From an uncultured Gammaproteobacteria bacterium (GTDB lineage: Bacteria; Patescibacteriota; Patescibacteriia; SG8-24; DYFX01), in assembly GCA_964400625.1 (NCBI GenBank), contig CAYNUS010000001.1:116606-180605 (forward strand): 64,000 nt of DNA, in the 5' to 3' direction. The stretch's first letter is position 1, and each line of letters begins with the position of its first letter. The notes beneath the pieces were generated by a model. That model did not search any database. It saw nothing but the letters and a program-made list of their open reading frames with translations, and had not been told where the DNA came from. Shown here one piece after another: positions 35,990 to 45,305 of the stretch. Made by a program: the position numbers and the translations under genes.

Positions 35990-36016
35990 AAAAACCGCCT
36001 GTGGGCGGTTTTCGCG
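35990..36016. terminator. Bidirectional terminator between tsf and the metzincin gene
   Basis: AACCGCC-tgtg-GGCGGTT flanked by A5 and T4. Confidence 0.55.
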
Positions 36017-36020
36017 GCGA

Positions 36021-36629
36021 TCAGCCGGGGACCTGGTTGTGGGATTCCATGGCGAAGCGCGTGAAGCGCTTGACCTGGATGTTCTCGCCCATCTTGGCGA
36101 TGGACTCCTTGACCACGTCCTCGACGGTCTTGTCCTCGTCCTTGATGTAGGCCTGGTTCAGGAGGCAGACCTCCCCGTACCACTTGCCGAGCTTGCCCTC
36201 GACGATCTTGGCGACCATCTCGGCGGGCTTGTTCGAGCCGATGAACTCTTCGGCGTAGATCTCCTTCTCCTTCTCGATGACCTCCGCGGGGATCGCGTCG
36301 GGCGAGACGTAGAGCGGGTTCATCGCGGCGATCTGGAGCGCGAGCGCGTGGCAGAGCTCCTTGAAGCCGTCGGTGCGGGCGACGAAGTCGGTCTCGCAGA
36401 GGACCTCGACCATCGCGCCCATCTTGCCGTTGCCGTGGACGTAGGCGTAGACGAGGCCTTCGGACGTCTGGCGGTCGGACTTGGATCCGGCCTTGGCGAT
36501 GCCCTTCTTGCGGAGGAGCTCGGCCGCGGCGGCCATGTCGCCGTTCGCCTCTTCGAGCGCTTTCTTGCACTCGACGATGCCCGCGCCGGTCATGGCGCGG
36601 AGTTCGGAAACCATCTTGGCGTCGATCAT
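36021..36629 (-). CDS. tsf: Elongation factor Ts
   Basis: MIDAKMVSELRAMTGAGIVECKKAL... Confidence 0.92.
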   Translation of the reverse strand: MIDAKMVSELRAMTGAGIVECKKALEEANGDMAAAAELLRKKGIAKAGSKSDRQTSEGLVYAYVHGNGKMGAMVEVLCETDFVARTDGFKELCHALALQIAAMNPLYVSPDAIPAEVIEKEKEIYAEEFIGSNKPAEMVAKIVEGKLGKWYGEVCLLNQAYIKDEDKTVEDVVKESIAKMGENIQVKRFTRFAMESHNQVPG

Positions 36630-36663
36630 AGGAGGAACGAAAGGTTAATGGAGGTCCGCTCGC

Positions 36664-37431
36664 TTACGCGGTGATGACGCGCGAGGCGCCTTCCGACGGC
36701 GCGGCCTTGGCGGCTTCGGCCTTCTGGGCGACGGCGTTCTTCTCGCGGAGCTTCTTGCCCTCGTTGACGGCCTCGGCCATGAGGCGGGTGATGAGCTCGA
36801 TGGACTTCACGGCGTCGTCGTTGGCCGGGATGCCGTAGGCGATGTCCTCGGGGTTGACGTTGGAGTCGAGCATGGCGAAGATCGGGACCTTCTTGTCGCC
36901 CGCTTCCTCGACCGCGGTCTTCTCGTGCTTGGCGTCGACGACGTAGAGGGCGTCCGGGAGCTTCGTGAGGGACGCGATGCCTCCCACCTTGCGCTCCATG
37001 TCCGCGATCTCGCGGTCGATGACGACGCGCTCCTTCTTGGTGTACTTGTCGAATCCGCCGGAAGCGGCCTTCGCGCGGTACTCGTTGAGCTTCTTGATGA
37101 GCTTCGAGATCTCCGGGAAGTTGGTGAACGTGCCGCCGAGCCAGCGCGTCGTGATGTACGGCATGCCGCACTCGTTCGCGTACTTCTCGACGATGCCGGA
37201 GGCCTGGCGCTTGGTGCCGAGGAAGACGATGACGCCGCCCTTCGCGACCATGTCGCGGGCCGCATCGAGCGCTTCCTTGAGCTTCGTGACGGTGGCTTCG
37301 AGGTTGATGATGTGGATGCCGTTCCTGGAGCCGAAGAGGAAGGGCTTCATCTTGGGATGCCACTTGGAGACCTGGTGGCCGAAATGGGCGCCGGTCTTCA
37401 AGAGCTCCACGAGTTCGGGGATCTCGTACAT
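36664..37431 (-). CDS. rpsB: 30S ribosomal protein S2
   Basis: ...ELLKTGAHFGHQVSKWHPKMKPF.... ATG 37431 preferred (AAGGAG 14 nt upstream); the track GTG 37458 lacks an RBS. Confidence 0.9.
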   Translation of the reverse strand: MYEIPELVELLKTGAHFGHQVSKWHPKMKPFLFGSRNGIHIINLEATVTKLKEALDAARDMVAKGGVIVFLGTKRQASGIVEKYANECGMPYITTRWLGGTFTNFPEISKLIKKLNEYRAKAASGGFDKYTKKERVVIDREIADMERKVGGIASLTKLPDALYVVDAKHEKTAVEEAGDKKVPIFAMLDSNVNPEDIAYGIPANDDAVKSIELITRLMAEAVNEGKKLREKNAVAQKAEAAKAAPSEGASRVITA

Positions 37432-37550
37432 AAAAGAGAGTGTTACTCCTTTTATCACCTTCCCGGCAGGGGCGGCCGTATCCTTGCGCCACGTGGCAGG
37501 ATGGCCGTTCCCAGGAGTCGCGCCGGAAATGTGAGGTTAATAATGCTCGG

Positions 37551-37579
37551 AGTATAGGGAAAGCCTCGCGGACTGTCAA
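37551..37579 (-). promoter_or_regulatory. Sigma70-type promoter TTGACA-17-TATACT of the rpsB-tsf operon; about 113-nt leader
   Basis: rc of 37574-37579 = TTGACA and rc of 37551-37556 = TATACT, spacer 17. Confidence 0.6.
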
Positions 37580-37583
37580 GGCT

Positions 37584-37610
37584 AAAGAAAAGCCCCCTAG
37601 CGGAGGGGGC
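37584..37610 (-). terminator. Terminator of the thioredoxin-like gene
   Basis: GCCCCCT-ccgct-AGGGGGC followed by TTTTCTTT on the minus strand. Confidence 0.6.
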
Positions 37611-37974
37611 AGGAGCTCGATTCGGCGAGCCATTTGAGGGAGCGGACCCCGAGGGCCTTGTAGCCGTCGGGGAAGCGCCAGGTCGGGTAGTTCTGGATGT
37701 CGAGCGCGTCGCACTCCGGGATGTTGCCGAAGGTGCCTTCCGGCTGGCAGTCGGTATAGGGCACGTCGGGCGCGTCCTTGCCGAAGAGCTCGAGCTGGTC
37801 GTGGCAGGGCTTGCACCAGTGGGCGCCGAAGAGGCGCATCCCCTTGCGTTTGAGGCACTTGGCGAGGGATTCCGGAGCGGCCGGGATCGGCTTGGCGTCG
37901 CCGGTCGTGGCCGGGGCGGCGCAGGAAAGGGCGGCCGTGAAGGCGAGGGTCAGGCAGGCGACGAGGCGGGGCAT
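37597..37974 (-). CDS. Secreted thioredoxin-fold protein (CxxC thiol-disulfide oxidoreductase-like)
   Basis: Signal peptide plus HWCKPCH active-site motif. Confidence 0.65.
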
Positions 37975-38008
37975 GGGGCCTCCTTCCGTCCCTTACCCTA
38001 GCCCACTC

Positions 38009-38037
38009 TTGCCAACTCCGCCAAGCCCTGCTATGCT
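38009..38037 (+). promoter_or_regulatory. Promoter TTGCCA-17-TATGCT of rpmE
   Basis: -35 at 38009-38014 and -10 at 38032-38037 visible. Confidence 0.45.
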
Positions 38038-38063
38038 CCCCGTCGTATTCAATCGTCTTCCCT

Positions 38064-38348
38064 ATGAAAGCGGAAACCCACCCGACGTATTACCCGGAAG
38101 CCAAGGTCGCCTGCGCCTGCGGCAACACCTTCACGACCGGCGCGACCGTCAAGGAGATCCATGTCGAACTTTGCTCCGCCTGCCACCCGTTCTACACCGG
38201 CAAGCAGAAGCTGATCGACACCTCCCGCCGCGTCGAGAAGTTCCAGGAGCGCACCACGAAGAAGGCCGCCGAAGGCACGAAGGCCACCGGCAAGAAGGCC
38301 CGCACCGTGAAGCGCACCGCGCTGAAGGCCGCCAAGGCCGCGAAGTAG
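38064..38348 (+). CDS. rpmE: 50S ribosomal protein L31 with Lys/Ala-rich C-terminal extension
   Basis: CACGNTF...[12 protein letters not shown] zinc-ribbon L31 signature. Confidence 0.9.
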
Positions 38349-38364
38349 CTTCGTCGCAGAACCC

Positions 38365-38392
38365 CGCTGAAGCGGGGTTTTGCTTATCTTGA
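38365..38392 (+). terminator. Terminator after rpmE
   Basis: AACCCCGC-tgaa-GCGGGGTTTT. Confidence 0.65.
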
Positions 38393-38409
38393 GCTATACT
38401 GAAACCCGC

Positions 38410-39498
<1,089 letters not shown>

Positions 39499-39500
39499 CG

Positions 39501-39596
39501 GGTACGGGAGCGCGTCCGCTCGCTGGCGCCGGGAAGAGGAATTTCGCTGTCGGAACGGACGCTGCGCTCGCGGACGCGCTCCCGTACCCTTTTGAG
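39501..39596 (+). promoter_or_regulatory. Perfect 19-bp inverted repeat with 50-nt loop and trailing CTTTT; terminator/attenuator-like element
   Basis: GGTACGGGAGCGCGTCCGC at 39501-39519 pairs with GCGGACGCGCTCCCGTACC at 39570-39588. A second CGGACGC copy at 39555-39561 offers alternative pairing. Confidence 0.5.
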
Positions 39597-39613
39597 AAAT
39601 AAGAAAGAAGACG

Positions 39614-40288
39614 ATGAAGGCTGTCATCTTCGCGGCGGGCCTCGGCACCAGGCTCCGGCCGCTGACCGACAACCTGCCGAAGCCGATGATCGAGGTGGGC
39701 GGCAAGCCGATCCTCCAGCGCACGCTGGAGGCGCTTCCGGCGTCCGTCGCCGAGACGATCGTCGTGGTCGGTTATAAAGGAGACGCCATCCGCGCCCATC
39801 TCGCGGGCGTCCCCGCCGTCCGCTTCGTCGAGCAATCCGAACTCCTGGGCACGTACGACGCGCTGATGCGCGCGCATCCGCACCTCGACGACGCGCCTTT
39901 CCTCGCCCTGAACGGCGACGACCTGTACGCGAAGGAGGATCTCGAACGCCTCGCCGCCTCGGACCCCTTCACCATGCTCGCGCATCGCGTGCCGAACCCG
40001 AGCCCGTACAGCCATCTCGCGTCCCGGAACGGGCTTCTCGACCGCATCGTCTTCCAGAAGGACGCCGAAGCGCTCCCGGCCAAGGACGTCTACGTCGGCG
40101 CCTGCCTGCTCGACCAGAGATTCTTCGCGCTCGAACCCGGGATGACGCCCGGCGGCGAGTTCGGACTGCCGCACACGCTCGAGAAGCACCTGAACAAGAT
40201 TCCTGTGCGCATCCTCGCCTCCACGTCCTGGATGCCGATCGGCACGCCGGAGGAGTTGGAGGCGGCCCGCGCGCGCTTCGTCTCCTGA
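39614..40288 (+). CDS. Sugar-phosphate nucleotidyltransferase (NTP_transferase family)
   Basis: MKAVIFAAGLGTRLRPLTDNLPKPM... Confidence 0.75.
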   Translation: MKAVIFAAGLGTRLRPLTDNLPKPMIEVGGKPILQRTLEALPASVAETIVVVGYKGDAIRAHLAGVPAVRFVEQSELLGTYDALMRAHPHLDDAPFLALNGDDLYAKEDLERLAASDPFTMLAHRVPNPSPYSHLASRNGLLDRIVFQKDAEALPAKDVYVGACLLDQRFFALEPGMTPGGEFGLPHTLEKHLNKIPVRILASTSWMPIGTPEELEAARARFVS

Positions 40289-40297
40289 GGCCCGCCC

Positions 40298-40326
40298 TTG
40301 ACGGAGGGCCGGACCTCGTGTATGGT
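40298..40326 (+). promoter_or_regulatory. Promoter TTGACG-17-TATGGT driving a ~225-nt non-coding unit upstream of prmC
   Basis: -35 at 40298-40303 and -10 at 40321-40326. Confidence 0.45.
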
Positions 40327-40528
40327 CCTGCCTACGAACCTTCGTTTCGGTCCGGGACCGGCGGCGCCGGACCTGCGCGTGATGGATGCCAACCCCTCCC
40401 CCCATCGGCATCTTCCGCGCGGAGTTCGCCCGCCGGCTCCTGGACCCCTTTCATGGAGGCGAGGGTCCTTTACCCGCCACGTCGGCTCCTGCGACGTCGT
40501 TGGGCTCCGCCTCCAACCTTTCCCCCAA

Positions 40529-40556
40529 GCTCCGCCCTCGCGGAGCTTCTTTTTTT
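40529..40556 (+). terminator. Intrinsic terminator/attenuator ending 18 nt before the prmC ATG
   Basis: GCTCCGC-cctc-GCGGAGC followed by TTCTTTTTTT. Confidence 0.6.
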
Positions 40557-40574
40557 CCCGTAGGCTGTCCGCAT

Positions 40575-41438
40575 ATGACCGTCCGCGAACTGGCCGCCTC
40601 GGCGGCCGACCGCCTGAAGCGCGCACGCATCCCCGAACCCCGCCGCGAAGCGGAGTCGCTCTTGGCGCACGCGCTCGGCAGGGACGGCGCCTGGATCGTC
40701 GGCCATGCCGATGACGCCGTGCCGTCCGCCGAGGCCAAGGCCTATGCCGCGATGATCGCCCGCCGCGCGACGCACGAGCCGTTCGCCTACGTCGTCGGCG
40801 AGCGCTGGTTCTACGGACGGAAGTTCCGCGTGACGAAGGATGTCCTCATCCCGCGGCCCGAGACGGAACTGCTCATCGAAGCCGTCCTCGCCGCCGCGCC
40901 GAACGGCTCGTCGGAGATCCTCGACATCGGCACGGGCTCCGGCGCGATCGGCCTCACCCTCGCCGCGGAGCTCCCCAAGGCGAAGGCCGTCCTCTATGAC
41001 ATCTCGAAGCGGGCGCTCGACGTCGCCCGCCTGAACGCCCGCGCGCTGAAGCTCGGGCGGCGCGTCCGCCTCGGCCGGCACGACATCCTGAAGATGACGC
41101 TCCCCGAACCGAAGGGCGGCTTCCGCATCCTCGCCGCCAACCTGCCCTACCTGCCGCTCGCGTCGTGGGCCAAGGCCGCCCCCGAGGTGCGCCTGCGCGA
41201 ACCGAAGCTCGCGCTGGTCTCCGGCAAGGACGGGCTCGACCACTACCGCGCGCTGTACAAGAGCCTTGCGCGGTGGAAGCGCGGACCCGAGCTCCTCGCC
41301 CTCGAAGCCGATCCCGGACAGTTCGCGGAGCTCCGGCGCATGACGGCCGCGCTCCTGCCGGGCGCCGGGATCGAAGTCCGCAAGGACCTCCACGGCGACG
41401 AGCGCATCCTCGTCGCGTCCAAACGAAAACGCCCCTGA
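40575..41438 (+). CDS. prmC: Release factor glutamine N5-methyltransferase PrmC/HemK
   Basis: N-terminal HemK domain (EAESLLAHALGRD), SAM motif LDIGTGSGAIG and NLPY (NPPY variant). Track ORF 40386 has a P/S/G-rich non-protein-like extension. Confidence 0.85.
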   Translation: MTVRELAASAADRLKRARIPEPRREAESLLAHALGRDGAWIVGHADDAVPSAEAKAYAAMIARRATHEPFAYVVGERWFYGRKFRVTKDVLIPRPETELLIEAVLAAAPNGSSEILDIGTGSGAIGLTLAAELPKAKAVLYDISKRALDVARLNARALKLGRRVRLGRHDILKMTLPEPKGGFRILAANLPYLPLASWAKAAPEVRLREPKLALVSGKDGLDHYRALYKSLARWKRGPELLALEADPGQFAELRRMTAALLPGAGIEVRKDLHGDERILVASKRKRP

Positions 41439-41464
41439 CAGGGGCGTTCGTCGTTCCGGGAATC
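41439..41464. terminator. Bidirectional terminator between prmC and rplY
   Basis: ACGCCCCT-gac-AGGGGCGT. Confidence 0.55.
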
Positions 41465-42151
41465 TTATTCCTTGGCGGCGGCTTCGGCGGCGGCCTTCTC
41501 GGCTTCCGCGGCGGCCTTCACTTCGGCTTCGGTCTTCACGGCCGTGACGTCGATCGGCGCGGCGTTCTCCATCGCCTTCAGCTGGTCTTCGGTCATCGGG
41601 GCTTCGATCTTCACGATCACCTCGTCGGCGTTCTCGAGGATCTCGATGCCGGCGGGGACCGCGAGGTCCTTGACCGTGATCATGTCGTCGAACGACTTCA
41701 GGACGGAGACGTCCACGTCGATCGAGTGGACCAGGTCGGTCGGGAGACATTCGACCAGGACGCTGTCGAGGGTCTTCACGATGGAACCGCCCTGCTCCTT
41801 CACCGCCGGCGATTCGCCGATGAAGTTGAGCGCGATCTCCGTCTTGAGCTTCTCCTTCAGGTTGACCTGGTAGAAGTCGACGTGGGTGTAGCGGTTCGAC
41901 AGCGGGTCGACCTGCCAGTCCTTCACGAGCGCCTTCACCGTGCCGTCGCCCTCGATCTCGAGGTCGAGGAGGGTCGACTCGCCCGCGGCCCTGAAGGCCT
42001 TGTGGAACGAGTTGTAGTCGGCCATCACGTTCTTGTTCTCCGTGCCGTGTCCGTAGATCACGCCGGGGACCAGGCTCTGCAGCCTGAGCTTCTTGGCCTT
42101 CACCGAAGCGTCGCGCTTCTTCAGGGCCAGTTTGATCGCTTCCATCGCCAT
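41465..42151 (-). CDS. rplY: 50S ribosomal protein L25/general stress protein Ctc
   Basis: L25 N-domain plus C-terminal extension with Ala/Glu/Lys tail. Confidence 0.85.
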   Translation of the reverse strand: MAMEAIKLALKKRDASVKAKKLRLQSLVPGVIYGHGTENKNVMADYNSFHKAFRAAGESTLLDLEIEGDGTVKALVKDWQVDPLSNRYTHVDFYQVNLKEKLKTEIALNFIGESPAVKEQGGSIVKTLDSVLVECLPTDLVHSIDVDVSVLKSFDDMITVKDLAVPAGIEILENADEVIVKIEAPMTEDQLKAMENAAPIDVTAVKTEAEVKAAAEAEKAAAEAAAKE

Positions 42152-42239
42152 AGGGCTACTCTGCGATTAATCGTTATGGGCGGATGATACGAAAGAAGGC
42201 CTCCCCTGTCAAGGGGAAGCCTTCCTGGCCGGACGGACG

Positions 42240-42602
42240 TTAGATGTACTCGAGCACCGCGTCGATGAAGTCCTTCTCGCCGTCGTCGGTCAGCAGCTGG
42301 TGGACGCTGATGACGTCGTCGGTGGTGACGGGGGCTTCGTGCTTGCTGAACTTGCGTACGTCGTCGTACGTCAGGTCGGTGATGAGGCCGACCGAGGAGA
42401 CGCCGGCGTTGGAGACCAACACGAGCGCGAGGATGGAGTTCCAGCACTTCTTGCACCGGATGTGCAGGAGGTGGCCGTCCTCTTTCTCTCCCAAGACCCG
42501 GGCTTCCATCGGATTGTAGTTCGTTTCGCACATGGGGCAAAACGAGATCATCCGGAGGCCGTCCTGATAATAGCTCGGCGTAGATTGTGAAAGCGGAGCC
42601 AT
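42240..42602 (-). CDS. Hypothetical zinc-ribbon protein (CxxC...CxxC)
   Basis: CPMCETN...CKKCWN. TCGACA-17-TATAGT promoter (rc of 42643-42671). The track GTG 42638 would lie upstream of the predicted TSS. Confidence 0.5.
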   Translation of the reverse strand: MAPLSQSTPSYYQDGLRMISFCPMCETNYNPMEARVLGEKEDGHLLHIRCKKCWNSILALVLVSNAGVSSVGLITDLTYDDVRKFSKHEAPVTTDDVISVHQLLTDDGEKDFIDAVLEYI

Positions 42603-42744
42603 ACGCAGTCTTGTGACGAACGTTTGTTTTACGACCACACTATACCATTTTTGTCGACCCTTGTCGAGGGGATAAGTGGCGAGCCAGCCTTAAAACGACG
42701 CGACCATGCTGGCGCAGCCATCCCGGCGAACGCCGGGATCCATG

Positions 42745-42786
42745 CCCGGAAAAACAAAAAAGACGTCCGTGATGGACGTCGTGGGG
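42745..42786 (-). terminator. Terminator of the P-loop kinase gene
   Basis: GACGTCC-atcac-GGACGTC followed by TTTTTTGTTTTT on the minus strand. Confidence 0.65.
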
Positions 42787-43376
42787 TCAGCCGTGCGCGA
42801 CGGGACCGAAGTCGATGAGCGTGGCGACGAGCGCCTCGACCTGCGCGATGAGCCGCTCGTAGCTGCCGTCGTTGTCGATGACGATCCGGCAGCGCGCGCG
42901 GACGAGGTCGAGCTGGCGCTCGCTCTCGGCCATCTCCTGGGCGTCGAAGTCCTCGCGAGACATCATCTGCTCGCCGGCCTTCTCCTTGCGCTCCTTGAGG
43001 CGCGCGTAGCGGACGTCGGCCGAAGCCTCGATCCAGACCATGATGAAGCGGTCGCCGTAGGCGGACTCGAGCAGGTCGCTGTCGTCGAGCCGGCGGACGC
43101 CGTCGATGGTGACGTGCGCCGAAGCGGCGAGCTCGCACTTCCGGGCCATGACGCGAGCCAGGCAATCCTGGCCGAAGCGCTCCCGAAGGACGGTCGAAAG
43201 CTCCTGGAGCGTGGGGCGCGCGACGTTCTCGCGCGGGACGCCGCACGCCTGGTGGATCTCGTACAGCACGTCGGAATACGTGTGCTTCGGGGCGGTGAGC
43301 AGCCCTGCCGCATGCGTGGTCGCGGTCCCCTTCCCGGAGCCGTTCCGGCCTGCGAAGGCGATGATGCTCTTGCTCA
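42787..43376 (-). CDS. P-loop NTPase, nucleoside-monophosphate-kinase-like (paralog of 53648..54256)
   Basis: Walker A GRNGSGKGT; GAGGAGGAC RBS; start trimmed to MSKSIIAF at ATG 43376. Confidence 0.65.
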
Positions 43377-43558
43377 TGGGTGTCCTCCTCGTCGGTGGAT
43401 CGTCTCGGAATCCGTAGGGCCAGTCGGCGCCGTCCGCCATCGATCGCTCCTGGTGTTCAAGGTGCTGCCCGGAACCTATCAGAAGAAGCGGCGCCCGTCA
43501 ACCTTCGCGACGCGCGCCGTTCATCGATGACGATGCTGAACATCTTTCTTGTTCACCC

Positions 43559-44656
43559 TCACGAACGCCGTACGGCGATGTTCTGCATGAGCGCGATGAG
43601 CGAGAAATGCATGATGAGCGAGCTGCCGCCGTAGCTCACGAACGGCAGCGCGAGGCCCGTGACCGGCAGGATGCCGGAGGCGACGCCGATGTTCACGAAG
43701 ATCTCGGCGGCGAAGAGCACCGACGTGCCGATCACGAGGAAGAGCGTGAAGTCGTCGCGGCAGGAGCGCGCCAGGACGTAGAGCCGCTGGAAGACCATGG
43801 CGAAGAGTCCGAGCAGGATGGCGACGCCGACGAAGCCGAGCTCCTCGGCGATGACCGAGAAGATGAAGTCCGTACGCGCTTCCGGCAGGAAGCGGAGCTG
43901 GCTCTGGGAACCGGAGGCGATGCCGCGGCCGGTCCACTGCCCCGCGCCGATGGCGATGACCGACTGCGTGACGTTGTAGCCCTGGCCGAACGGGTCGCTC
44001 GTCGGATCCATGAACGTCATGATGCGCTCCTTCTGGTACGGGCGCAGGAGGAACGACCACGCGCCGATGAAGAAGACGGCCGCGACGAGGAACATGGTGA
44101 GGAGGTGCCGCGCGCGGAGTCCGGAGATGAGCACCGTGCCGAACCAGATCGACGCGAGGATGACCGAGCCGCCGAGGTCCGGCTGAAGCACGACGAGCAG
44201 CAGCATGACCGCCACCGTCACGGCGCTCTGGATGACGACGCGGATGTCCTTCGTGTAGCGGCCGTGCGTGGCGAGGAACTTGGCCATGAGGACGATGAGC
44301 ACGACCTTCGCGACTTCGACCGGCTGGAAGCCGACGGGCCCGAGGTAGAGCCAGCCGCGCGTGCCGCGGATCGTCTGGCCGAAGAAGAGCGTCGCGGCCA
44401 GGAGCGTCGTGATGCCCGCGTACATCGGCACCGTGATGAAGGCCAGCCAGCGGTAATGGAAGCTCACGCCGCCGACGAAGACGACGAGGAGCCCCAGCGC
44501 GAAGAAGAAGAGCTGCTTGCGGAAGCTCGCGAAGTCGGTCTCGACGCCGAGGCCGATCGAGTAGAGCGCCAAGAGCCCGAGACCCGTGAGCAGGACGGCG
44601 GCGCCGAGCAGCAGCCAGTCGAATTTGCGGTAGGCGTTCAGCGTGCGTTGCAGCAT
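43559..44656 (-). CDS. SEDS-family peptidoglycan glycosyltransferase (RodA/FtsW)
   Basis: 10-TM profile and conserved C-terminal PFVSYGGSSL block. Confidence 0.9.
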   Translation of the reverse strand: MLQRTLNAYRKFDWLLLGAAVLLTGLGLLALYSIGLGVETDFASFRKQLFFFALGLLVVFVGGVSFHYRWLAFITVPMYAGITTLLAATLFFGQTIRGTRGWLYLGPVGFQPVEVAKVVLIVLMAKFLATHGRYTKDIRVVIQSAVTVAVMLLLVVLQPDLGGSVILASIWFGTVLISGLRARHLLTMFLVAAVFFIGAWSFLLRPYQKERIMTFMDPTSDPFGQGYNVTQSVIAIGAGQWTGRGIASGSQSQLRFLPEARTDFIFSVIAEELGFVGVAILLGLFAMVFQRLYVLARSCRDDFTLFLVIGTSVLFAAEIFVNIGVASGILPVTGLALPFVSYGGSSLIMHFSLIALMQNIAVRRS

Positions 44657-44705
44657 GCGCGAAAGTTCCCTACGATACTAGTCGAACGAACCCCTAAAGA
44701 CAACC

Positions 44706-45305
44706 ATGCGCACCACGATCATCATCGCCCTCATCGCCCTGCTCCTCGGAGCGGGCTCGGCCTCCTGGCTCATGACCCGCGGCAAGGGCGGCGGCACGGT
44801 CATCGACGCCGGCCGCGACGCCGTCGTCCAGGAGATGCGGAGCCTCGGCCGGCTCGAGACGTCGTCCTTCAGCATCGAGAAGATCATCGAGGCGCGGAAG
44901 GACGAGGGCGGACCCTGGCGCGACATCCTCTTCGGGGACAAGCTGCTCCTCATCGCGAACGGCGAGGTGGTCGCCGGCTACGACCTGAGCGGCCTCACGG
45001 AGGACGACATCGAGAAGGCCGGCGACGGGCTCCGCGTGAAGCTCCCCGCCCCTGAGATCTTCTCGGTCCGCCTCGACAACGAGAAGACGCGCGTCTACGA
45101 CCGCGACCAGGGCCTGCTCGCGCGCGGCGACAAGGACCTGGAATCGGAGGCGCGCCTCGCGGCCGAACAGTCCATCCGCGACGCCGCCTGCGCCGCCGGC
45201 ATCCTGCGCGAGGCGGAGGAGAACGCGGTGAAGCAGCTCGGCGCCGTGCTCGGCGCGCTCGGCTTCCCGGACAGCGTCATCCAAAGCCCGCCCGGATCGT
45301 GCTGA
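44706..45305 (+). CDS. Hypothetical membrane-anchored protein (possibly DUF4230-like)
   Basis: N-terminal TM then soluble domain; family assignment from memory only. Confidence 0.45.
   Translation: MRTTIIIALIALLLGAGSASWLMTRGKGGGTVIDAGRDAVVQEMRSLGRLETSSFSIEKIIEARKDEGGPWRDILFGDKLLLIANGEVVAGYDLSGLTEDDIEKAGDGLRVKLPAPEIFSVRLDNEKTRVYDRDQGLLARGDKDLESEARLAAEQSIRDAACAAGILREAEENAVKQLGAVLGALGFPDSVIQSPPGSC

Follow-up and report, generated by a model that had tools for sequence, protein, structure and literature searches.

A window of 64 kb (64,000 nt) from contig CAYNUS010000001.1, assigned to an uncultured bacterium of the Patescibacteriota, very probably carries a discrete structured non-coding RNA gene immediately upstream of prmC. 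The element occupies most of the 286-nt gap that separates a nucleoside triphosphate (NTP)-transferase gene from prmC, and is best read as an independently transcribed, clade-specific small RNA (sRNA) gene of ~220 nt, predicted to span about 40334-40556 on the plus strand. A promoter of its own, a terminator of its own and the lack of a conserved open reading frame (ORF) are generic marks of an sRNA gene, and sequence and conservation point to all three here. An earlier note on this DNA had offered two readings of the unit, a candidate attenuator leader or sRNA. The second is borne out: promoter, terminator, a long hairpin (H1) and the hairpin loop are all kept in relatives. The first is not, as prmC has its own -10-like hexamer and an antiterminator conserved among relatives is lacking.

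Ten distinct versions of the element were found upstream of prmC: that of the window (L113) and those of the loci L114, L115, L117, L118, L081, L123, L124, L128 and L129. Three close loci came from a metagenome scan and most relatives from exact-protein look-ups, and the PrmC proteins of the RNA-bearing relatives are 67-82% identical to that of the window. All ten versions share a core which consists of the promoter hexamers, a 5' tail, H1 with an invariant loop, a C/U-rich linker and the terminator (Table 1), and the RNAs predicted from them are 149-320 nt long.

The promoter, noticed earlier as TTGACG-17-TATGGT at 40298-40326, was recovered by a promoter scan, and its hexamers are common to all ten versions. 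The spacer between them is exactly 17 nt long in each while its sequence is variable, and a GTG stands just 5' of the -10 hexamer in seven. Fixed hexamers around a diverged spacer are the footprint expected of a real promoter. As a control for the scan, shuffled sequence gave 0.8 +/- 0.9 promoter-like sites where the 10-kb region itself gave 6. We infer from the usual spacing that transcription starts near 40333-40336 and, from the position of the terminator, that the RNA ends there.

The intrinsic terminator had also been recognized just before prmC, and our scan places its hairpin and T-tract at 40527-40556. The stem-loop AAGCTCCGC-cctc-GCGGAGCTT (40527-40548) runs into the tail CTTTTTTT (40549-40556), which ends 18 nt before the prmC ATG. 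The earlier note held that absence of hairpin and T-tract from relatives would speak against the unit: the terminator is present in all 14 loci compared. Its core stem, GCUCCGC/GCGGAGC, is identical in 13 of them, the 3' arm in L118 being GCGAAGC (one G-to-A change); in every locus the loop is rich in C and U, with a length of 4-7 nt, and U7 follows the 3' arm. The stem is near-invariant even though PrmC identity falls to 65%, while H1 by contrast has been extensively turned over, and it overlaps the place where a -35 hexamer of the prmC promoter would lie. A constraint at the DNA level, or from protein binding, may act on it.

The predicted RNA is strongly folded. The segment 40330-40560 on the plus strand has a minimum free energy (MFE) of -117 kcal/mol (z = -8.0), and none of 200 dinucleotide shuffles was as stable; the opposite strand of the same region has z = -2.75. 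G-U pairs, the T-tract, the fold z-scores and the score of a covariance model built on H1 all indicate the plus strand. This model finds one copy of H1 in the window, at 105 bits on the plus strand (28 bits on the minus strand), and its next best match reaches 21 bits.

As judged from the alignments, H1 is held by compensatory substitutions. When seven H1 sequences were aligned with MAFFT on sequence alone, 89% of cells paired according to the MFE structure of the window, compared to 33-54% when the 3' partner is slid, and four pairs are changed on both sides. A structure-derived alignment, in which ten hairpins were ordered by their independently predicted pairs and padded with N, has changes on both sides in 28 of 40 pairs, against 10 +/- 2.3 in shuffles; this alignment is 100% paired by construction, and only the shuffle control is informative. 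Plain MAFFT followed by RNAalifold on nine H1 sequences was dropped: the variable upper stem was misaligned. Four unrelated but complementary forms of the loop-closing helix were seen (GAUGCC/GGCAUC, GACGCC/GGCG, GCCGGC/GCUGGC and UCGCCGU/ACGGCGA), and in L129 even the basal helix is changed, from GGUCC...GGACC to GGCCC...GGGCC. Covariation in orthologous prmC leaders, which the earlier note had named as a check, is seen: H1 is kept paired by compensatory change.

The versions differ also in what stands between H1 and the terminator. Two accessory hairpins occur there, H2a (consensus of 25 pairs, 4 of them compensatory) and H2b (24 pairs, 5 compensatory, e.g. GGAGG/CCUCC to GGUGG/CCACC in L123). 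Both are present in L115, L118, L123 and L124. The window has H2b only and lacks H2a, L114 has H2a only, and L117, L128, L081 and L129 have neither, so that H1 and the terminator are their only hairpins. The short hairpins first picked out in this GC-rich body are real inverted repeats, but most of them regroup into H1 and H2b in the comparative data. GGTCCGG, which had been paired with CCGGACC, forms one end of the long hairpin H1 and the 5' GGACC the other; ACGTCG...CGACGT stands as the tip of H2b; and GGACCC...GGGTCC finds no support, as it is missing in relatives without H2b. The recurring motif CGGCTCCTG is present as a two-copy repeat but is private to the window sequence. The 5' tail is a GAACCUUCGUUUC-like stretch of ~15 nt, and a small local hairpin which it forms in the window version is likewise not kept in relatives.

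H1 ends in an apical loop which is 14-17 nt long and C-rich. The invariant loop core CCCUCCCCC is usually followed by CAUC, and in all ten versions its mean unpaired probability in the ensemble is 0.84-1.00. Each RNA-bearing locus has a single copy of the loop motif CCCTCCCCC, on the plus strand, and the remaining 112 loci together have three. A trans-acting base-pairing sRNA is expected to expose a conserved seed that is accessible and single-stranded, and CCCUCCCCC is such a segment. The linker before the terminator is unpaired in the MFE structure of the window and has an unpaired probability of 0.79-1.00 in the nine relatives. Loop core, linkers (CCUUUCCCCC or CUCUCC) and the CCUC loop of the terminator together make up a set of single strands free of G and A.

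Table 1 Features of the element and of the surrounding locus (positions in the window).
Feature	Position	Strand	Basis and remarks
-35 hexamer TTGACG of the RNA's predicted promoter	40298..40303	+	Promoter scan; TTGAC(G/A) in 10/10 versions
-10 hexamer TATGGT	40321..40326	+	Promoter scan; TAnnnT in 10/10 versions
5' tail ACGAACCUUCGUUUC	40334..40348	+	Moderately conserved, largely single-stranded in relatives (alignment, unpaired probabilities)
H1, conserved long hairpin	40349..40446	+	98 nt here, 91-116 nt in relatives; MFE, alignments, covariance model
H1 apical loop AACCCCUCCCCCCAUC	40391..40406	+	Core CCCUCCCCC invariant; holds the core CCUCC complementary to Shine-Dalgarno sequences
Linker CCUUUCA after H1	40447..40453	+	(C)CCUUU follows H1 in all versions
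H2b, accessory hairpin	40454..40515	+	5/10 versions and a truncated copy in L083
Pyrimidine-rich single-stranded linker ACCUUUCCCCC	40516..40526	+	C/U-rich in 10/10 versions
Intrinsic terminator	40527..40556	+	9-bp stem, CCUC loop, CU7 tail; hairpin -15 kcal/mol
TAGGCT, -10-like hexamer assigned to prmC's own predicted leaderless promoter	40561..40566	+	8 nt before the ATG; outside the RNA, marks its boundary
rpmE	38064-38348	+	
prfA	start probably 38410	+	TTG start at 38380 in the ORF track probably too far upstream
NTP-transferase gene	39614-40288		Stop at 40288
prmC	40575..41438	+	287 aa; true start 40575 (homologue lengths, coverage, Pfam PrmC_N)
rplY	downstream of prmC	opposite strand	

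The start of prmC bears directly on how the element is read. PrmC homologues are almost all 285-290 aa long and cover 100% of the product of the window gene, and positions 1-71 of Pfam PrmC_N align to its residues 5-75. The start is therefore at 40575, and the in-frame extension from 40386 is an artefact. The earlier note had found this extension not protein-like, with which we agree (PrmC is complete without it, and one relative has only 16 nt in front of the gene), and had named evidence for a real start at 40386 as a finding that would overturn its proposal; homologues and PrmC_N place the start elsewhere. It had also remarked that prmC has no Shine-Dalgarno (SD) sequence. This is correct, and a predicted leaderless promoter explains it: a TAnnnT hexamer precedes the prmC ATG by 6-8 nt in 14/14 loci, among them L121 and L082, which have no RNA. 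prmC is probably its own leaderless unit, as far as the promoter sequence tells.

Such starts are ordinary in this genome. We surveyed 55 gene starts in the window, chosen by third-position G+C and taken as the first ATG, individually unverified. TAnnnT starting 12-15 nt before the ATG was found at 15 of them and at 0.44% of other ATGs (p ~4e-23), and GGAG or GAGG in the SD position at 12, against 11% of other ATGs. By this count ~27% of the starts are leaderless-like (for example those at 2357, 5617 and 34498 on the minus strand and 17708, 38410, 40575 and 57293 on the plus strand), ~22% have a GGAGG-type SD, and the rest, such as rpmE and rplY, are leadered without an SD. The rpmE/prfA junction has the same layout as the end of the element: a terminator at 38356-38383 with a 12-bp stem, TATACT at 38395-38400 and, 9 nt further on, the prfA ATG at 38410.

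We considered whether the unit could be a cis-acting 5' leader of prmC, in which transcription from 40334 would meet a conditional terminator at 40527-40556 and read-through would yield the prmC mRNA. The RNA always lies directly before prmC, even in L124, which has another gene, on the opposite strand, in front of it; this keeps a cis role in play and weighs against a purely trans-acting RNA. The short distance from terminator to ATG would suit a leader, and the 3' strand of H1 carries GCGGAG in the window, a possible pairing partner for the 5' arm of the terminator. However, the conserved TAnnnT before prmC belongs to a class enriched in this genome, the terminator and this -10 also precede prmC in L121 and L082, where the RNA body is lacking, and L119 has no element at all in the 16 nt between its upstream gene and prmC. 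The terminator/antiterminator alternatives that the earlier note envisaged were looked for by comparing the best partner of the terminator 5' arm across relatives, and no conserved antiterminator pairing was found: the partner shifts between positions 31-41, 96-98 and 136-138 depending on the relative, always within stable helices. One or two hairpins can moreover be inserted between H1 and the terminator with neither of these lost. The shifting partner and the insertable hairpins leave no conserved expression platform, there is no match to a riboswitch or leader family, and we consider a leader of this kind improbable. Peptide-mediated attenuation through a 36-codon ORF (40453-40563), which had also been suggested, lacks support: this ORF lies in H2b and is missing in the five versions without that hairpin, and such ORFs as do occur among the versions differ in frame and peptide; no leader peptide is conserved. 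The same observations bear on the idea that the region encodes a small protein, be it this ORF, an 81-codon ORF at 40318-40563 or the N-terminal extension of prmC from 40386. Such frames are open in the window, but among relatives they vary in frame, length and peptide, the lengths of H1 differ by numbers that are not multiples of three, the local ORFs have neither a ribosome-binding site nor a Pfam match, and PrmC is complete from 40575, which makes a coding role scarcely credible.

If the element is a separate sRNA gene, the RNA would be released at the terminator and act in trans. Its C-rich single strands, with the anti-SD core CCUCC, would pair with G-rich sites in mRNAs, for example the GGAGG-type ribosome-binding sites that about a fifth of the genes here use, and the pairing would block translation or alter mRNA stability. 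By analogy to 6C, RoxS and the cuckoo RNAs, we put pairing of a C-rich loop with G-rich or SD-like mRNA sites at barely short of an even chance, and the explanation as a whole, a separate sRNA gene acting in trans through C-rich strands, seems to us evenly balanced. Besides the constant position before prmC, several points weigh against it. Duplexes of the loop with 52 start regions were no better than those with random windows (mean -6.5 versus -8.2 kcal/mol; RNAduplex, 64 kb), and a duplex of the loop with ordinary SDs of this genome (GAAGGAGGC) would be no longer than 5-6 bp. An unvarying loop core of 9 nt, together with a near-invariant terminator stem, is stricter than pairing with multiple targets usually needs, and could indicate a protein or ribosome partner instead. 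The covariation rests on ten sequences from one clade, with the largest count coming from an alignment of per-sequence folds, and both transcript ends are predicted from the sequence. The complement of the 5' tail also occurs at chance frequency, with no enrichment.

The strictness of the loop would fit a decoy or sponge, that is, an RNA whose C-rich loop and pyrimidine-rich linkers bind a protein or a G-rich RNA partner: a KH or S1-type pyrimidine-binding protein, or a component of translation, with the number of hairpins tuning the number of partners bound. The core CCCUCCCCC is strictly invariant despite almost complete turnover of the stem around it, a (C)CCUUUC-type single strand follows every hairpin so that more hairpins mean more sites, the locus lies within translation genes, and the window start regions gave no mRNA target signal. 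No candidate binding protein was identified, however, the C-rich loop is present only once per RNA, the repeated GGA-type motif of CsrB-type sponges is lacking, and C-rich loops are an established pairing seed in other high-GC bacteria (PMC6486639); we regard this possibility as unlikely, though worth keeping in view. The region could, alternatively, be a structured 3' end without a role of its own, which stabilises or insulates the transcript of the upstream NTP-transferase gene or small ORF and shields the prmC promoter, the promoter hexamers being incidental or weak. Upstream transcripts would indeed enter the element, as no terminator lies between the NTP-transferase stop and it; the same terminator just closes a small ORF in L121 and L082, and a comparable long hairpin follows prfA (39500-39594). 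But incidental hexamers would hardly keep an exact 17-nt spacing in 10/10 versions around a diverged spacer, the invariant loop and the compensated H1 are more constraint than a stabilising hairpin needs, and the unit persists in L124 beside an upstream gene on the other strand, so that we give this little credence. An sRNA that acts as an anti-SD mimic within a translation-gene cluster, titrating or silencing the SD-led minority of genes or binding the ribosome or another component of translation, is a long shot of similar standing. If true, the RNA would switch a reduced genome of the Candidate Phyla Radiation (CPR) globally from one mode of translation initiation to another.

Outside a narrow clade of high-GC Patescibacteria the element was not found. 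The window has a G+C content of 60-71%, and the closest named relatives of its PrmC carry the label "Patescibacteria group bacterium". Close relatives keep the order rpmE, prfA, NTP-transferase gene, gap, prmC, rplY, with a gap of 16-604 nt. In more distant lineages (PrmC 31-44% identical) we saw no element among the matches listed in a genome scan by PrmC alignment, and exact matches to two conserved stretches were not found in viral collections. An H1 model (R1) proved too narrow, giving L123 only 35 bits and missing L081 and L129. Its negatives in other lineages are therefore weak, and the plain count of the loop motif is the better test of specificity.

Comparison of the loci suggests how the element arose. 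The oldest layer, shared by all 14 loci, is made up of the terminator and the -10 of prmC. In L121/L122 and L082 a small ORF is followed directly by this terminator, without an RNA body, and in L082 the 3' untranslated region (UTR) of the ORF holds a C-rich stretch, CUCCGCCCCAUCCAUC, before the terminator. The RNA-bearing clade has promoter and H1 between the stop codon of the ORF and the terminator, and most of its members have since lost the ORF: an unannotated ORF remains between the NTP-transferase gene and the promoter of the element in L117 (119 aa), L129 (151 aa) and L081 (cut by the contig end). The sRNA may therefore have grown out of a 3' UTR. The small ORFs lie at 1938-2297 in L117, 2048-2446 in L121, 647-1102 in L129 and about 2015-2420 in L082; the L121 and L117 products are 29% identical. 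The small ORF of the relatives (119-151 aa) has no Pfam match, and no copy of it was found in the window. In one further metagenome contig, L083 (PrmC 78% identical), all that remains at 1400-1560 is the 3' half of H2a together with H2b, the terminator and prmC, behind unrelated upstream sequence. Either the RNA has been inactivated there by a real deletion or rearrangement, or the contig is an assembly chimera.

Within the window, neither a repeat search nor the H1 model found a second copy of the element, and a tRNA scan found none. The element is surrounded by translation genes, rpmE and prfA on one side and prmC and rplY on the other. Gene orientation in the window switches in the region of ~36000-45000, from mostly minus left of ~38 kb to mostly plus right of ~44.7 kb, and the cumulative GC skew has its maximum near 36-37 kb; the skew tracks the coding strand, with C > G there. 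The rplY promoter, TTGACA-17-TATCAT (42184-42219, minus strand), overlaps the terminator-like hairpin CTTCCCC TTGACA GGGGAGG which ends the upstream gene, and is another case of terminator and promoter packed tightly together. Between prfA and the NTP-transferase gene lies a 95-nt hairpin (39500-39594, plus strand) with a perfect 20-bp basal stem, GGGUACGGGAGCGCGUCCGC / GCGGACGCGCUCCCGUACCC, followed by UUUU (fold -64.6 kcal/mol, z = -5.7). It is kept with a compensatory change in L115, is absent from L114 and L119, and ranks second, without significance, among the matches of the H1 model. It could be a terminator of exceptional length or some other structured element. The 11 nt at 40255-40265, at the end of the NTP-transferase ORF, are perfectly complementary to 40507-40517. 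We do not regard this as a meaningful pairing: it looks like chance, and L114, the locus compared, differs at these positions.

Patescibacteria, or CPR, are a very large, mostly uncultured bacterial radiation with small genomes, and in the literature searched we found no regulatory RNA described for them. The element represents a new RNA family, restricted to one clade, whose functional kind is already known. As a candidate sRNA family it is well delimited and supported by comparison, and it supplies a covariance-model seed for wider searches. The annotation of the locus is corrected as well, with prmC starting at 40575 and probably forming its own leaderless unit. Current views are not overturned, the clade being narrow, the design familiar and the function proposed only.

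The element matches no Rfam family. Searches with the 4227 covariance models of Rfam 15, a check also proposed in the earlier note, gave no match at gathering score in the 64-kb window, only a spurious long non-coding RNA fragment of 10 bits at E <= 10 in 40200-40650 (451 nt), and none at E <= 1 in the loci of five relatives. We rejected 6S RNA, which has no Rfam match here: instead of a rod of about 150-200 nt whose 5' and 3' ends pair and whose middle opens into a large bubble, H1 forms an almost continuous hairpin, and the minimal versions consist of H1 and the terminator only. Bacterial signal recognition particle RNA was rejected as well, as the apical loop is C-rich and of 14-17 nt rather than the GNRA tetraloop of domain IV, and it too has no Rfam match. 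The order of promoter, structured RNA, terminator and gene start 18 nt later recalls terminator-based attenuators and riboswitch leaders. Here, by contrast, a conserved -10 belonging to the downstream gene lies at leaderless distance, an alternative antiterminator kept among relatives is lacking, and some relatives have the terminator but not the structured RNA.

Mycobacteria have many leaderless mRNAs and TAnnnT promoters, and their 6C RNA, named after six conserved cytosines in its stem-loops, is shorter than the RNA described here. 6C (B11, Actinobacteria) shares with it a high-GC host, a run of C in a hairpin loop, and leaderless mRNAs and TAnnnT promoters in the host genome. There is no homology in sequence or structure, however: the Rfam 6C model is unmatched even at E <= 10, two adjacent loops carry C runs in 6C whereas here a single hairpin of 91-116 nt does, the other C/U-rich stretches here are the linker and the CCUC loop of the terminator, and the phylum is Patescibacteria. 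The two C-rich loops of the 6C fold, L2 and L3, have been shown experimentally in mycobacteria to be seeds which bind G-rich, RBS-like (ribosome-binding-site-like) sites without a chaperone (PMC6486639). The cuckoo RNAs of Alphaproteobacteria (alpha-r14, RSs0680/CcsR, NfeR1) consist of 2-4 hairpins of 24-50 nt, each with CCUCCUCCC in its loop; stems and hairpin number vary, and the conserved loop motif CCUCCUCCC is an anti-SD look-alike (PMC4615179). Our RNA resembles them in being modular, with a variable number of hairpins, variable stems and a conserved loop motif, but only H1 carries the motif, CCCUCCCCC, H2a and H2b have no C-rich loop, and there is no Rfam match. In the Firmicutes, C-rich loops or linkers of RoxS/RsaE, FsrA and CsfG, among them RoxS and FsrA of Bacillus, are seeds for the SD regions of their targets (PMC8216469). 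These RNAs, too, combine C-rich loops and single-stranded linkers with an intrinsic terminator; they are not homologous to ours, are shorter, contain several CCCC motifs, and have known regulation and targets. A C-rich loop in a high-GC, leaderless-rich genome of the Patescibacteria parallels the independent evolution of this design in Actinobacteria, Firmicutes and Alphaproteobacteria.

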